IMG/VR virus record: IMGVR_UViG_2529292906_000017
Length of the DNA: 18,305 bases
Direction: 5' to 3' (one strand)
Source of the DNA: a virus
Taxonomy: Duplodnaviria; Heunggongvirae; Uroviricota; Caudoviricetes
Shown: positions 3,307-18,305 of the stretch, piece by piece
How positions within the stretch are numbered: the first letter of the stretch is position 1
Layout: each line of letters begins with the position of its first letter
The notes under the pieces: generated by a model
What the model saw: only the letters and a program-made list of their open reading frames with translations
The model's database searches: none
What the model was told of the DNA's origin: nothing
Translations under genes and position numbers: made by a program

Positions 3307-3882
3307 CTACGGCAGTGCTGGCCATTCAATATCCGGTGCAGTTGATGTATCAACACGGTTCAGCAACACCCGATACTTTTTCCAGGCTTCCAGCAACAAG
3401 GTTTCTTCCTCCGTTGCGATCTCCAGATCCACAGCATCCTGAAGCGGCGCTATATGCTCACTGGCTATCTGCATCAGGCTGTTTTTTGTTTCTTCCGCCT
3501 CCCGGATCCGGAACAGTTTTTCTGCTTCCGTATCCTTCACCCAGGCTGTGCCGTTCCACTTCTGATATTCCCCTCCCGGCGATAACCAGGTAACATTTTC
3601 CGGTAACGGACCGAGTTCAGAAATAAATAACGCGTCGCCGGAAGCCACGTCATAAACCGTTTTACCCCGATGATCTTCAACGAGATGCCACGATGCCTCA
3701 TCACTGTTGAAAACAGCCACGAAGCCTGCCGGAATATCTGGCGGTGCAATATCGGTACTGTTTGCTGGCAGACCTGTATGAGGCGGAATATATGCGTCAC
3801 CTTCACCAATAAATTCATTAGTTCCGGCCAGCAGATTATAAATTTTTATGGTCCGTGGTTGTTCACTCATTCTGAATGCCAT
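3307..3882 (-). CDS. tfaQ: Tail fiber assembly protein (lambda Tfa-like)
   Basis: 191-aa ORF, near-identical over its length to lambda Tfa as recalled ([24 protein letters not shown]...). Start overlaps the stop of the upstream stf fragment. Confidence 0.85.
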
Positions 3883-4190
3883 TACGCAAGCCTCACAATA
3901 TAGTTAAATGCGATGTTTTTGACGGTGTTTTCCGCGTTACCAGCAGCGTTAACGGTGATGGTATGTCCATGTGAACCAATCGCAACGGAGTGCGTATGAG
4001 CACCAATACCGACAGTATGTGCGTGTGCACCTGCGCTTGCAGCAGTACCCGATACAGAGTGCGTATGAGCGCCTGCAGAAGAAGTGTTAACACTGTATTT
4101 AGAATAATCAGGTGATCCACTTCCCGGAGCACCACTGGAACCACCTGAAACAAATGTCATCGAATGGGTATGTGCACCGGCTGTCCCCAT
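3882..4190 (-). pseudogene. stfQ: C-terminal remnant of side tail fiber protein (Stf) with GAHTHS repeats
   Basis: 102-aa ORF with repeated GAHTHS motifs, ending [11 protein letters not shown] as in lambda Stf C-terminus. Only about 100 codons remain; the upstream part is replaced by a J fragment in another frame. Confidence 0.75.
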
Positions 4191-5437
4191 GCATTTACCG
4201 CCCGGACTGTCAGCCTGTAATTTCCCAGCGCCAGCTGCGTGAAGCGATATGTGGTTTCCGTCGTCCGGGCCGTGCTGACCAACCGCTCACTGCCGTCGTC
4301 CGCTGCCACGGTCAGGCGAAGCATAAAGCTCACCCCCTTCACCACCTTCGGCGTGTCCCAGCGCGCCAGCACCTGGTATTCCCCGCTGTCTGCGGTGACT
4401 TCTGCGGTCAGGTGCTGAACTGCTGGCGGCGTGACACCATTCACCGTGCCGCTCTGGTCACCGTCAAAGTGCGCCCCGTTATCCACGATGGCTTCTTTCT
4501 CCGGTACATGCTGCACGGCAGTGATGGCATACGTACCGTCATCGTTCTCACGGATACTCACACAGCGGAACAGGCGCTGACGCAGCGTCGGCAGCTTCAG
4601 CCCCCACACGCTGTACTCGGCAACGCCGTCAGGAACCCGGCTCACTTTCACCTTCACGCCGTCGGTGACGGACTGGACCTCCACGCTCACCGGATTACCC
4701 TGCCCGTCAACCAGGCTTATCAGCGTGGTGCCGGAGGATGGCAGCGTGATTTCACGGTCGAGCGTCAGTGTCCGCGTCTGGCTGTTCACCGCCAGCACGC
4801 GCCCGCCGATGCTGATCCCCGCATAGTCATCATCACAGATTTCAATGACATCACCTGGTACATGGCGAAGCCCTTCGGCACCCACGCTGAAGTCCACGGT
4901 CTGCGTTTCCAGCAGTTCCGTTTTAATCAGCCACAGCCCGGCTCGGTGCGCCTGCCCCCGCCTGGTACAGCCAAAGGCATCCATCTTCGTGACGTTACGA
5001 CCGTAACGGGCAATGGCCTGCGTGTCCTCCACAAGCTCTGTCGCCGTCTCCCAGCCGTTATCCGGGTCAATCCAGTTCACCTCAACGGCATTATGGCGGT
5101 CCTTCAGGGCGCTGAAGCTGTAGCGGAACGGCGCGCCATCATCCGGCATCACCACATTACTGCGGTTATAGGTCCACACCTTATCTGATGGTCGGTCCTG
5201 CACGAACGTCAGCGTCTGCCCGTTCCATACCGGCATACAGCGCATCGCCGAGCAGAAATCACTGAGAACATCCCACGCCTTACGCTGTGTGGTCAGCCAG
5301 GCATTACAGGTGATGCGCGGCTCCGTGCCGCCAAAACCGTCCGGCACCGACTGGTCGCAACACTGGCCGATGACATACAGCGCCCATTTATCCACATCTG
5401 CCGCACCAAGACGTTTACCCATGCCGTAGCGCGGGTG
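4157..5437 (-). pseudogene. Internal fragment of tail tip / host specificity protein J (lambda gpJ-like)
   Basis: Translation from HPRYGMGKRLGAADVDKWALYVIGQ to [11 protein letters not shown] matches lambda J mid-region closely. The first 29 residues of the 455-aa track ORF are an out-of-frame read of Nu1 DNA, and the C-terminus diverges 7 codons before the stop. Confidence 0.8.
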
Positions 5438-7560: not shown

Positions 7561-7756
7561 CTTTTTTAAATCCAACGACAGACGGCTGGCATTTAAGTAT
7601 TGTGAAATATTATCAAATGTAATCATCATTGATTTACAAAAGATACATTTTGCCCCGAAAGGATTCATGTCAGAAACATCAAAAGATGATGTTCTATACT
7701 GGGAACCATGACAACACGGGCATCTAAAGTGAATATGGTTTGTAATATTGTCTACC

Positions 7757-7969
7757 TCAAAGCGCCACTACATGAACAGCGGCAGGACCTTTAGGTCCGT
7801 TCTCAATACCAAATTCAACTTCCTGATTCTCAGTTAATGTTTTGAAATCGTTGCTCTGAATTGCTGAGAAATGGACAAACACATCTTTGCTGCCATCTTT
7901 CGGCGTGATGAAACCAAAACCTTTTTCAGGGTTAAACCATTTCACTAAACCAGTCATTTTGTTAGACAT
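7757..7969 (-). CDS. cspI: CspA-family cold shock protein
   Basis: 70-aa [41 protein letters not shown] with RNP1/RNP2-like motifs (KGFGFI, VFVHF). Confidence 0.9.
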
Positions 7970-8330
7970 AATTATTACCTTTTGAAGAAATTAGCCCTTG
8001 GGCAGAATGGTCCGAAAAAAATATCAGAGAGAAAAACCAACAAGGAAATCTCAAGAGGTACAAATAATAAAATTATAACAATGACTGCTTCAGATAAATT
8101 TGTAACAAACCAGAACACCATTAACGCATGATTAACCACCCATAGCAAGGATTACTTTTGTAAAGAAAAACACAGCAATGAAAGAATAGCTTTATTTATT
8201 AATAAAACGTGTCATTCTGATTAAGACCTTTTATCTTACCCTTAAGATTTCAGGAATTTTGGCTCATGGAAGAGTCCTTTTTATTTAAATTTTACATTCC
8301 GCGATGTAAATGTTCCGATTTAATATTACC

Positions 8331-9353
<1,023 letters not shown>

Positions 9354-9357
<4 letters not shown>

Positions 9358-9665
9358 AGATATTTATGATGAGGACGCTCGTGCTTATTGGCAGGATTTT
9401 CAATCTTAAAGGAGTACTGATGCTGCAGATAAGACTCAACTTTTTCTGACAATTTTTCTGCTACTTCCAGGAAGACTTGCCGGACGCTCCTTCTGGCTGC
9501 TGCCTCATAAAACTCCAGCGCAGCTCCTTCAACACGGTCCATGGCGACATCCAGGTCAAAAATTTCACCGTCAAAGCGTTCTTTGTCCTGTAAGGCTACA
9601 GTTACCGTAACTTTATTCTCAAAATTACGGACTCCTTTCACAACCAGTTCATAGTCTTGAGTCAT
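9354..9665 (-). CDS. ydfR: DUF1327-family prophage protein located between holin and endolysin
   Basis: 103-aa ORF MTQDYELVVKGVRNFENKVTVTVALQDKERFDGEIF...; 4-bp overlap with the endolysin start. Function unknown. Confidence 0.7.
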
Positions 9666-9669
9666 TGGA

Positions 9670-9885
9670 TTACTCTCCTCTCGCAGCCTTACGCCTGTCT
9701 TCTTTAATCTTGAAATAAAGATTTGTCAGATACGTCAGCAGGCCAAAAACCAGGCTACCCAGCACACCGATTGCAGCCCACTGTGACGGAGTTACTTTAT
9801 CGAGTAACTGCAATGCCCAGAAACCAGCATTACCCGCCGATGTGCCATAGGCAACACCTGTTGTTAACTTATCCATTGATTTCAT
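9670..9885 (-). CDS. essQ: Class II holin (phage 21 S-like pinholin) with dual-start motif
   Basis: 71-aa product [71 protein letters not shown]; two TM helices, Met1/Met4 dual start, charged C-terminus. The track ORF 9670..9960 extends upstream. Confidence 0.85.
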
Positions 9886-10104
9886 ATCCTCACCCCGATG
9901 TACACGGATGGTGCAATATGTTTGAAAAGATCGGAGTCTACGGGGTAGTTTTGACAGCACACGTTGTTCTCAACGGCGCTAAAAAAACATACACATTAAA
10001 AATGTGGGTAATTATTTTGAAAGAAAGTCATATATAAAATAATAATACGAGAAATGTTTTCATATTTAGTGTACTGTATACGGCCATTTATACAGGAAAA
10101 GCCT

Positions 10105-10275
10105 ATGTCAGAACGTAAAAACTCAAAATCACGCCGTAATTATCTCGTTAAATGTTCCTGCCCAAACTGCACCCAAGAGTCAGAACACAGTTTTTCAAGA
10201 GTACAAAAAGGTGCCCTTTTGATCTGCCCTCATTGCAACAAAGTATTCCAGACAAATCTTAAAGCTGTAGCCTGA
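10105..10275 (+). CDS. Small zinc-ribbon-like protein (56 aa), unassigned
   Basis: ATG at 10105 preceded by AGGAAAAG; MSERKNSKSRRNYLVKCSCPNCTQESEHSFSRVQKGALLICPHCNKVFQTNLKAVA has CxxC...CxxC spacing. The track ORF starts upstream at 10054. Confidence 0.45.
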   Translation: MSERKNSKSRRNYLVKCSCPNCTQESEHSFSRVQKGALLICPHCNKVFQTNLKAVA

Positions 10276-10333
10276 TTGATTTTATTAGTAACAAGTATTT
10301 TTTATATTTTAATAATATATTTAAAGCAGATAA

Positions 10334-10362
10334 TAAAAAACCCGCCTGAGCGGGTTTGAGAT
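10334..10362. terminator. Rho-independent terminator-like hairpin (stronger on the minus strand)
   Basis: AAAAAA-CCCGC-CTGA-GCGGG-TTT; reverse complement gives stem plus T6. Confidence 0.45.
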
Positions 10363-10517
10363 TGTGGTGCTTTTTGTGGGAGTCATCCACTTACGCACTT
10401 TGTTTTGCCATGCCAGCAGTTAGCTTCTGCTGTAAAACTATTCATGCAGCAAACCTGCACTTCACCACAATGGTTAGCATACTTTTCCTGATTAAGATTT
10501 TGGGTAATGACTCCAAC

Positions 10518-10895
10518 TTATTGATAGTGTTTTATGTTCAGATAATGCCCGATGACTTTGTCATGCAGCTCCACCGATTTTGAGAACGACAGCGACTTCC
10601 GTCCCAGCCGTGCCAGGTGCTGCCTCAGATTCAGGTTATGCCGCTCAATTCGCTGCGTATATCGCTTGCTGATTACGTGCAGCTTTCCCTTCAGGCGGGA
10701 TTCATACAGCGGCCAGCCATCCGTCATCCATATCACCACGTCAAAGGGTGACAGCAGGCTCATAAGACGCCCCAGCGTCGCCATAGTGCGTTCACCGAAT
10801 ACGTGCGCAACAACCGTCTTCCGGAGCCTGTCATACGCGTAAAACAGCCAGCGCTGGCGCGATTTAGCCCCGACGTATCCCCACTGTTCGTCCAT
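10518..10895 (-). CDS. insB: IS1 InsB transposase domain (InsAB' C-terminal part)
   Basis: [65 protein letters not shown]... matches IS1 InsB. Confidence 0.8.
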
Positions 10896-10914
10896 TTCCG
10901 CGCAGACGATGACG

Positions 10915-11214
10915 TCACTGCCCGGCTGTATGCGCGAGGTTACCGACTGCGGCCTGAGTTTTTAAATGGCGGAAAATCGTGTTGAGGCCAACGCCCATAA
11001 TGCGGGCAGTTGCCCGGCATCCAACGCCATTCATGGCCATATCAATGATTTTCTGGTGCGTACCGGGCTGAGAGGCGGTGTAAGTGAACTGTAGTTGCCA
11101 TGTTTTACGGCAGTGAGAGCAGAGATAGCGCTGATGTCCGGCAGTGCTTTTGCCGTTACGCACCACGCCTTCAGTAGCGGAGCAGGAAGGACATCTGATG
11201 GAAATGGAAGCCAC
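10915..11214 (-). CDS. insA: IS1 InsA with altered C-terminus from a shortened A-run at the frameshift site
   Basis: [43 protein letters not shown]... is InsA (zinc finger plus HTH), but the ORF ends ...[18 protein letters not shown] (99 aa) instead of ...RHLKNSGRSR (91 aa) because TTTAAAAACTC has A5 where IS1 has A6C. Confidence 0.8.
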
Positions 11215-11413
11215 GCAAGCACCTTAAAATCACCATCATACACTAAATCAGTAAGTTGGCAGCATTACCAGATTTTGCCAAATATGCTAGCCATTGTTTC
11301 ATGTATTGGACCTCCTTACTTTTTATTAAAGAGATCCAATATTCACTACTCTGTCCGTATCTCTACTCAGGCATCAGCCTTCTTCGTTATCGTATACAGA
11401 CGAGCGATGAATT

Positions 11414-11629
11414 TTAATCAGTAATGATGACATTTGCTGCTGCAGGACCTTTAGCACCACTCTCTATAGAGAAGGTAACCTTTTGACCTTCAAATAAGGT
11501 TCGATAATTATCATTCTGAATCGCAGAAAAATGCACAAACACATCTTTACTACCATCAACAGGAGAAATAAAGCCGAAACCTTTATCAGCGTTAAACCAT
11601 TTTACTAAACCAGTCATTTTATTTGACAT
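11414..11629 (-). CDS. cspB: CspA-family cold shock protein
   Basis: 71-aa [41 protein letters not shown]..., paralogous to the ORF at 7757..7969. Confidence 0.9.
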
Positions 11630-11929
11630 TCTACATTCCTTAACTTGAGCCTTTCGGCATAAATGGTTTGCATAACAGAAACGACTTCGTACTTAATTGG
11701 AGAGACTCAAAGAAGGAATAAGTGAATAACACCTGAAATGAGAACTGCTTTAGTAAACTACTTCGTATATCGTCTGTTCTTCAAACCGACGCAATCATTA
11801 ACGCATAGTTGAACATATGAAGCAATGTTTATTTTAGACATCCAGCCATCTTCAACCCCATCAAAAAACTATAGCTTTCTTCAGGAACGTGTGTATAGTG
11901 CGCCAAGTTATCAGTATTAAGGAATTTTT

Positions 11930-12142
11930 TTGTCCCGTAAAATGACAGGAATTATCAAAACCTTTGACGGCAAAAGCGGCAAGGGTCTTATCACCCCATC
12001 CGATGGTCGTATCGATGTCCAGCTTCATGTTTCAGCGCTCAATCTCCGCGATGCAGAAGAAATTACCACCGGATTACGCGTGGAATTTTGCCGGATAAAT
12101 GGTCTGCGTGGCCCTTCAGCTGCCAATGTTTACCTTTCATGA
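11930..12142 (+). CDS. cspF: CspA-family cold shock protein paralog, apparent TTG start
   Basis: 70-aa ORF (M)[43 protein letters not shown]...; first codon at 11930 is TTG, with AAGGA upstream. Confidence 0.8.
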
Positions 12143-12196
12143 GCTATATTAAAGCTTTAATTTCAGGCCCCATCGGATCACACATGGAGAGTTTTT

Positions 12197-12286
12197 ATGA
12201 ATAACCCCGTCTGTCTTGATGACTGGTTGATTGGCTTTAAAAGCTTATGCTGTACTTTGGCCGTAATAGCTCTGCTAATAATATAA
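12197..12286 (+). CDS. Candidate small membrane peptide (29 aa), unassigned
   Basis: ATG at 12197 preceded by GGAGAG; [29 protein letters not shown] has a hydrophobic C-terminus. Very short; could be chance. Confidence 0.2.
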
Positions 12287-14724: not shown

Positions 14725-14976
14725 TTATTCTCCTGAAAAAGCAGAAAAGCCAGCTTTTATTCCGATCTCTTTCAATGCCTGTAATGAAGTGACAAACTCA
14801 CCTTCGCGCAAGATAAATCCGTCCGTGACCCGAGCATCCACAAAATTAATTAACGCAGCCCCATTCTTTCGCAAACACATAATGCGGTAATGACTAACAA
14901 GATTTCCATTTTCAACGCACACAGCATAGAGGCCATCTTCACAAAAAATTTTACGCAGTTCTTCGATGTTCATCAT
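14725..14976 (-). CDS. rem: Rem-like 83-aa prophage protein
   Basis: 83-aa ORF MMNIEELRKIFCEDGLYAVCVENGNLVSHYRIMCLRKNGAALINFVDAR... between ydfU and hokD; symbol assigned from position and length only. Confidence 0.45.
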   Translation of the reverse strand: MMNIEELRKIFCEDGLYAVCVENGNLVSHYRIMCLRKNGAALINFVDARVTDGFILREGEFVTSLQALKEIGIKAGFSAFSGE

Positions 14977-17091: not shown

Positions 17092-17418
17092 ATGACTAAA
17101 AATACTCGTTTTTCCCCCGAAGTCCGTCAGCGGGCGATTCGTATGGTTCTGGAAAGTCAGGATGAATATGACTCACAGTGGGCGGCAATTTGTTCCATTG
17201 CCCCAAAGATTGGCTGTACGCCGGAGACTCTGCGTGTCTGGGTTCGCCAGCATGAGCGGGATACCGGGGGCGGTGATGGTGGGCTCACCACCGCTGAACG
17301 TCAGCGTCTGAAAGAGCTGGAACGTGAAAATCGTGAACTGCGCCGCAGTAACGATATCCTTCGCCAGGCTTCCGCTTATTTTGCGAAGGCGGAGTTCGAC
17401 CGCCTCTGGAAAAAATGA
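17092..17418 (+). CDS. IS3-family transposase OrfA (HTH plus leucine zipper)
   Basis: 108-aa [60 protein letters not shown]...[27 protein letters not shown]. Confidence 0.85.
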
Positions 17419-18305
17419 TGCCACTGCTGGATAAGCTGCGTGAGCAGTACGGGGTCGGACCGGTATGCAGCGAACTGCATATTGCCCCGTCAACGTATTA
17501 CCATTGTCAGCAACAGCGACATCATCCGGATAAACGCAGTGCCCGTGCGCAGCACGACGACTGGCTGAAGAGAGAGATACAGCGCGTATACGATGAAAAT
17601 CATCAGGTGTACGGTGTGCGTAAAGTCTGGCGTCAGTTGTTACGGGAAGGAATCAGGGTGGCCAGATGTACAGTGGCGCGCCTCATGGCGGTTATGGGAC
17701 TTGCCGGTGTTCTCCGGGGTAAAAAGGTCCGCACTACCGTCAGCCGGAAAACCGTTGCCACAGGTGACCGCGTAAACCGTCAGTTCGTGGCAGAACGTCC
17801 TGACCAGCTGTGGGTGGCTGATTTTACTTACGTCAGCACATGGCAGGGCTTCGTCTATGTGGCGTTTATCATTGATGTGTTTGCCGGATACATCGTGGGG
17901 TGGCGGGTCTCATCGTCTATGGAAACGACATTCGTGCTGGATGCGCTGGAGCAGGCGTTGTGGGCCCGTCGTCCGTCTGGCACCATCCATCACAGCGATA
18001 AAGGCTCTCAGTATGTGTCACTGGCCTATACGGAGCGACTAAAAGAAGCCGGATTACTGGCATCAACAGGGAGTACAGGCGACTCGTATGACAACGCGAT
18101 GGCTGAGAGCATCAATGGTCTTTACAAAGCGGAGGTAATACACCGTAAGAGCTGGAAAAACCGTGCAGAAGTGGAACTGGCCACACTAACGTGGGTGGAC
18201 TGGTATAACAATCGACGATTGCTGGGAAGGCTGGGCCATACTCCTCCGGCAGAAGCAGAAAAAGCTTATTATGCTTCCATCGGAAACGATGATCTGGCAG
18301 CCTGA
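17415..18305 (+). CDS. IS3-family transposase OrfB (IS629-like), DDE integrase domain
   Basis: 296-aa ORF with ...[31 protein letters not shown]...[10 protein letters not shown]...[16 protein letters not shown]. Confidence 0.85.

Follow-up and report, generated by a model that had tools for sequence, protein, structure and literature searches.

The window, by which we mean the whole 18,305-nucleotide stretch of DNA analyzed here, carries two cold-shock genes on its minus strand, cspI (7757..7969, 70 aa plus stop) and cspB (11414..11629, 71 aa plus stop). Both were recognized because the window is nearly identical to Qin, a cryptic prophage of E. coli K-12. Each gene is preceded by a long leader that matches the cspA-type thermoregulator of Rfam, with the 5'UTR spanning 7970..8114 (-) at cspI and 11630..11790 (-) at cspB. 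The two cassettes have different neighbours: cspF is divergent at cspB, and rzpQ lies upstream at cspI.

An element of identical sequence, CATTAACGCAT, lies upstream of both genes. It has two exact matches in the 18.3-kb window, both on the plus strand (8119-8129 and 11796-11806), and on the strand of the genes it reads ATGCGTTAATG. The original prediction, of an 11-12 nt element shared upstream of cspI and cspB, was borne out as to recurrence. The ranges that it assigned (8119-8130 and 11796-11808), however, overshoot by one and two bases; the 12th base is G at one site and A at the other, hence 11 nt are held in common. The predicted distance of 150-167 nt is correct when measured to the start codons, since from the gene-proximal base of the motif it is 150 nt downstream to the ATG of cspI (7969) and 167 nt to that of cspB (11629). 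A further, imperfect site (14882-14892, minus strand, a single mismatch) was rejected as a chance occurrence, 0.39 sites being expected in the window at no more than one mismatch.

Next, we compared the 300-nt regions upstream of cspB and cspI, and found that their longest common substring is the motif itself. In shuffles that preserve dinucleotides, a common run of at least 11 nt anywhere in these regions came up 93 times in 2000 (p~0.05), a marginal value for an unregistered 11-mer because the DNA is AT-rich. An 11-nt run in the register of the GGTTTG cold-box anchor (within 3 nt on either side) was far rarer, at 23 of 20000 shuffles (p~0.001). Given that the neighbouring genes differ between the two loci, the motif travels with the csp gene. 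Reading the motif on the opposite strand was considered and dropped, as the neighbours are unlike at the two loci.

Transcript 5' ends and promoter anatomy

Three independent lines of evidence (Rfam boundaries, UTR lengths and a cspB cloning primer) placed the mRNA 5' ends 5-7 nt downstream of the motif. First, Rfam RF01766 (cspA thermoregulator) matched the minus strand at full length at 11790-11398 (158.8 bits) and at 8114-7730 (114.2 bits). In K-12 cspA the same family starts 160 nt before the ATG, which indicates that RF01766 begins at the 5' end of the cspA mRNA. At both loci the motif lies outside the RF01766 match, 5-6 nt beyond its 5' boundary, and it forms no part of the first RF01766 hairpin (the GGUUUGA..ACAGAC stem-loop), that is, of the cold box. 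Second, the published 5'UTR lengths, taken in the order cspA, cspB, cspG, cspI, amount to 159, 160, 155, and 145 nt in one report (PMC6719143) and 159, 161, 156, and 145 nt in another (bioRxiv 10.1101/2021.03.08.434349), and therefore put +1 at 11789 or 11790 for cspB and at 8114 for cspI. Third, Adams et al. 2021 give 5'UTR primers for cspB and cspG in their supplements; the cspB primer for the 'entire 5'UTR' starts GTCGGTTTGAAGAACAGAC, and the resulting construct begins GTCGGTTTGAAG, which corresponds to window position 11790.

On the basis of UTR length, Rfam start and cloning primer, we assigned the cspB transcription start to the G of GTCGGTTTG at 11790 (-). The cspI start was inferred at 8114 (±2 nt, minus strand) from the published 145-nt 5'UTR and the start of the RF01766 match. 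The true cspI start may lie 1-2 nt from 8114, because this position is a T and would leave the -10 hexamer at -11..-6. With these starts, the motif occupies -16..-6 at cspB (11796..11806, minus strand) and about -15..-5 at cspI (8119..8129, minus strand), and is hence untranscribed. The cold box lies downstream of the motif and begins 3-4 nt into the transcript. At both genes it is the hairpin that comes first in the Rfam alignment: at cspB the stem-loop GGUUUG-AAGAA-CAGACG (11771..11787, minus strand), and at cspI an equivalent, GGUUUG-UUA-CAAAUU (8097..8111, minus strand), which is degenerate in comparison with that of cspB. The leaders of cspB, cspG and cspI have been treated as RNA thermometers (PMC13271884), and they too are transcript downstream of the motif. 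We also noted that Adams et al. 2021 record, in their supplements, abundant RNA 3' ends in the cspB and cspI leaders (NC_000913.3 positions 1641634 and 1638774, respectively 80 nt and 107 nt upstream of the ORFs), as well as Rho-dependent effects for cspB and cspG fusions; taken together, these entries suggest premature termination within csp leaders.

Upon inspection of the sequence around the motif, we could assign the elements of a promoter on the minus strand at both loci. At cspB, the TG of an extended -10 is at 11804..11805 (-15/-14), the -10 hexamer GTTAAT at 11797..11802 (-12..-7, 6 nt before the G at +1), and the -35 hexamer TTGCTT at 11820..11825, separated by a 17-bp spacer; an A-rich, UP-element-like tract, TAAAATAAACA, lies upstream at 11826..11836. 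At cspI, the corresponding TG (TGn) was read directly at 8127..8128, GTTAAT at 8120..8125 (-11..-6, 5 nt before +1), TTGCTA at 8143..8148, again with a 17-bp spacer to the -10, and the A-rich tract ACAAAAGTAAT at 8151..8161, upstream of the -35. Both promoters thus read TG-C-GTTAAT, with the TG one base before the hexamer as in a sigma-70 extended -10 promoter. Relative to the inferred +1, the hexamer ends with its last T at -7 in cspB and at -6 in cspI, in agreement with the sigma-70 spacing of about 6-8 nt to the start, and although a -35 at 17 ± 1 bp is optional for this promoter class, TTGCTT and TTGCTA are found at exactly 17 bp. The A-rich tract at cspI may function in the manner of the AT-rich UP element described for cspA (Mitta et al. 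1997).

The promoter parts adjoining the motif are not conserved between the two genes: the spacers (CATATGTTCAACT in cspB versus ATGGGTGGTTAATC in cspI) and the discriminators (ATTGCGTC versus GTGTTCT) have diverged, hence the motif stands out as an island of identity. A generic promoter scan of positions 7700-12200 listed neither csp promoter (7 sites versus 9.0 expected). The scan missed both because it demands an A at hexamer position 2, which is absent from GTTAAT; its silence on cspB and cspI is therefore uninformative. As a separate observation, the cspI spacer contains another copy of GTTAAT, located 11 nt upstream of the -10 hexamer (GTTAATCATGCGTTAAT, window 8120-8136, minus strand), and this second copy is retained in cspI-type orthologues.

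Conservation among paralogues and orthologues

Alignment with K-12 cspA and cspG showed that the core TG[GC][CG]TTAAT is common to all four cold-inducible genes. All four also have a TTGC -35 element 17 bp upstream of the -10 and an AAAATAA tract before the -35, and the GGTTTG cold box starts 8-10 nt after the hexamer in cspA and cspG as well as in cspB and cspI. The cspA promoter, TTGCAT-17-CTTAAT with TGG before the hexamer, shares with those of cspB and cspI an A-rich tract, TTGCnn, the 17-bp spacer, TG-n-NTTAAT and a leader of ~160 nt starting with the cold box. It differs in having TGGCTTAAT where cspB, cspI and cspG have TGCGTTAAT, and in a discriminator that is 1-2 nt longer than those of cspB and cspI. 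CTTAAT is reportedly named as the cspA -10 in the primary papers on this promoter, and the architecture of the cspA promoter is attributed to Tanabe 1992, Mitta et al. 1997 and Phadtare & Severinov 2005. The cspG promoter, TTGCTT-17-GTTAAT within ATGCGTTAATA, is identical to those of cspB and cspI in ATGCGTTAAT and lies at an equal distance from GTCGGTTTGAA, but the base after its hexamer is A instead of G. In addition, cspG is chromosomal and sits beside cspH, whereas cspB and cspI belong to the Qin prophage. A TGn motif accompanying the -35 and -10 elements has been noted before for these same four genes (bioRxiv 10.1101/2021.03.08.434349, citing Phadtare & Severinov 2005). Compared with a generic extended -10 promoter (TGnTATAAT), cspB and cspI likewise have the TG one base before the hexamer and -10 and -35 elements that are partly consensus; by contrast, the consensus A is missing from position 2 of their GTTAAT, and they have in addition a recognizable -35 and a UP-like tract.

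Searches with the CspI protein against IMG/VR and metagenome contigs yielded 160 loci at 79-100% protein identity, 158 of which had sufficient upstream sequence, giving 60 distinct 230-nt upstream regions. TGCGTTAAT was found at -157 to -190 from the ATG in 38 of these 60 regions, and a one-base variant of it (TGAGTTAAT or TGCCTTAAT) in 4 further regions. We then aligned 47 distinct segments anchored on the cold box, including K-12 cspA and cspG and the cspB and cspI of the window. These segments were retrieved via the CspI protein and not via the motif, and they are phylogenetically non-independent. Conservation across the 47 segments was 91-96% in the columns of the A-tract, 81-100% in cTTGC, 96% at the G of TG and 96-98% at the final AT of the hexamer. 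Most spacer columns were at 34-55%, rising to 70-91% next to the TG, and the bases just before it (AAnCA) were conserved at 77-91% family-wide; the discriminator columns were at 38-70%. From the alignment, this column profile reads as that of a promoter.

The hexamer and the TG vary together in these segments. TG is present one base upstream in 29 of the 29 segments with an NTTAAT hexamer, and 15 segments have a TACTAT, TATTAT, or CACTAT-type hexamer at the same position without a canonical TGn. Such a pattern would be the expected trade-off between a weak hexamer with TG and a near-consensus hexamer, as read from phylogenetically non-independent segments. We noted, as part of the same survey, a subclass of close CspI relatives from metagenomes (L238-L272, 79-90% identity) that carries GTCTACTAT, GTCTATTAT, or GTCCACTAT in place of TGCGTTAAT, with a stronger hexamer and no canonical TGn; -35, UP-like tract and cold box are all retained in it. 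At another locus (metagenome contig OGCU01003552.1, L212), a natural deletion has taken out the cspI promoter in full, from the UP-like tract through the -35 to the -10, and joins the equivalent of window position ~8255 directly to the leader CTGGTTTG.

Lastly, species-representative genomes (596 Gb) were scanned with the pattern TGCGTTAAT-N8-9-GGTTTG, which has 15 specified bases. At least 120 stretches matched. About 100 of them were discarded as chance matches in unrelated taxa, a number to be expected for 15 bases in 596 Gb, and use was made of the matches with a csp gene downstream, these loci being biased for the motif by their selection. In at least 20 non-K-12 matches a csp gene lay 150-196 nt downstream; those listed are all Enterobacterales, from 14 genera: Escherichia, Enterobacter, Citrobacter, Kluyvera, Pseudescherichia, Scandinavium, Pluralibacter, Buttiauxella, Edwardsiella, Yersinia, Serratia, Rouxiella, Pectobacterium, and Xenorhabdus among the matches listed. 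TTGC, which the pattern does not demand, was present at the same 17-bp spacing in each of the 20 csp matches listed.

Function of the motif

We are confident that the motif is the sigma-70 extended -10 core of the cspB and cspI promoters, and that it sets the transcription start 5-7 nt downstream. The positions, the spacings and the conservation across paralogues and orthologues were computed here; the UTR lengths and the TGn assignment were taken from published work. This element has been described before, as the -10/TGn region of cold-shock csp promoters, and is not the cold box. In mechanistic terms, ATGCGTTAATG can be parsed as TG-C-GTTAAT with a single additional base at either end. Together with the -35 hexamer 17 bp upstream and the A-rich UP-like tract it would position RNA polymerase, with region 2 of sigma-70 reading GTTAAT, region 3.0 reading TG, and the -35 and A-rich tract supplying further contacts. 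Transcription would then start at 11790 (cspB) and at about 8114 (cspI), and produce 161- and 145-nt leaders that open with the cold-box stem-loop. GTTAAT is a weak -10 hexamer because the consensus A is missing at its second position (-11), and by analogy with cspA the TG before it, which sigma region 3.0 contacts, would compensate for this weakness. Dependence of transcription on the TG and the hexamer is reported for cspA only (Phadtare & Severinov 2005); by analogy, TG and GTTAAT would each be required for transcription of cspB and cspI.

The original prediction had tied the motif to the long 5'UTR of cspA-type genes, and had proposed that it is either a transcript 5' end or a cold-box-like element. 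The first of these ideas holds; +1 is just downstream of the motif, and the leaders are 145 nt (cspI) and 160-161 nt (cspB) long. The second needs adjusting: the motif positions the 5' end, but the end itself lies 5-7 nt further downstream. The third is contradicted by the location of the motif upstream of +1 at both loci and of the true cold boxes at 8111-8097 and 11787-11771.

We considered whether the motif has a role beyond that of a -10 element. The (C)ATGCGTTAATG block is near-invariant across the cold-inducible csp paralogues of Enterobacterales, and the hexamer never has the consensus A at -11. This near-invariance goes beyond the needs of sigma-70 and might reflect a second function, either -10 melting and open-complex kinetics tuned to low temperature or a putative factor site overlapping the -10; we regard this as a long shot. 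Much the same doubt, if slightly greater, attaches to the proposal that the invariant 11-12 nt (C)ATGCGTTAATG doubles as the operator of a dedicated regulator, or is a specialized cold-adapted -10 variant, which would account for bases conserved beyond TGn...T. C-13, G-12 and the CA before the TG, which sigma-70 does not strictly need, are conserved in many Enterobacterales, and the hexamer has remained non-consensus without drifting towards TATAAT. However, these two positions are G and C in cspA (TGGCTTAAT), other members have A or C there (TGAGTTAAT, TGCCTTAAT), and a whole subclass has TACTAT in place of the motif with the remaining architecture intact. Moreover, the conservation derives partly from shared ancestry. 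We know of no regulator for an operator at the csp -10 motif.

More improbable still is a role for the motif in the RNA, whether as a cold-box-like element or as another part of the csp mRNA leader. Its conservation in two cold-inducible paralogues and its location near the 5' end of the leader would suit such a role, and the cold box is indeed conserved among the same four csp genes and adjoins the motif. Nevertheless, every available measure puts the motif upstream of +1. The cold box is a transcribed mRNA 5' stem-loop, whereas the motif is untranscribed promoter DNA; the true cold-box hairpin (GGTTTG...CAGAC) lies 9-10 nt downstream of it and is unlike the motif in sequence, and the orthologues with a TACTAT -10 keep the cold box while the motif is absent. 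Least credible of all is a chance match, or a functionless neutral remnant of a cspB/cspI duplication, for while two AT-rich 300-nt regions share an 11-mer in about 5% of shuffles, the in-register probability is about 0.001 and the element is also found, in the same place and with flanks that vary, in cspG, in 14 genera and in orthologues whose protein identity goes down to 79-84%.

The value of identifying the motif as an extended -10 core is mainly one of correct annotation: the motif marks where the promoter core of two cold-shock genes on a prophage lies, and hence exactly where their 5' ends fall, and it is cleanly set apart from the cold box and the thermosensor RNA downstream. A modest addition is the conservation of the TGCGTTAAT form of the -10 across many Enterobacterales, and its alternation with a TG-less, near-consensus TACTAT or TATTAT, a natural example of promoter-element compensation.

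Prophage setting

Both cassettes are also found in sequenced E. coli phages with upstream regions that are 96-100% identical (PV340562.1, OV696610.1, PP925841.1, which is our locus L284, NC_049950.1, LR597641.1, and PV340573.1). The gene order in the phages is that of the window: the Q antiterminator, the cspB cassette, holin and lysis genes, and the cspI cassette. Since both cassettes occur in sequenced phages in a conserved order, cspB and cspI, with their own promoters, behave as morons of lambdoid late regions.

Elsewhere, the window departs from the Qin prophage of K-12 MG1655 in several places. A 767-bp segment at 10503-11269, about 145 bp past the 3' end of cspB, is absent from MG1655 at this position and is probably an IS1 insertion, because matching genomes annotate an IS1-family transposase in the stretch. 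Positions 4071-5435 gave no alignment to MG1655 Qin, where the stfQ/nohA region lies, and appear to be a variant side-tail-fibre region. Nearby, a full-length Rfam match to IS009 (221.5 bits; 3341-3539, minus strand) falls inside a tfaQ-like tail-fibre-assembly ORF (3307-3882). From 16175 onward the window has no match to MG1655 Qin. An Rfam ALIL pseudoknot (121.5 bits; 17373-17489, plus strand), the frameshift signal of an IS3-family transposase, lies at the junction of two overlapping plus-strand ORFs (17092-17418 and 17415-18305).
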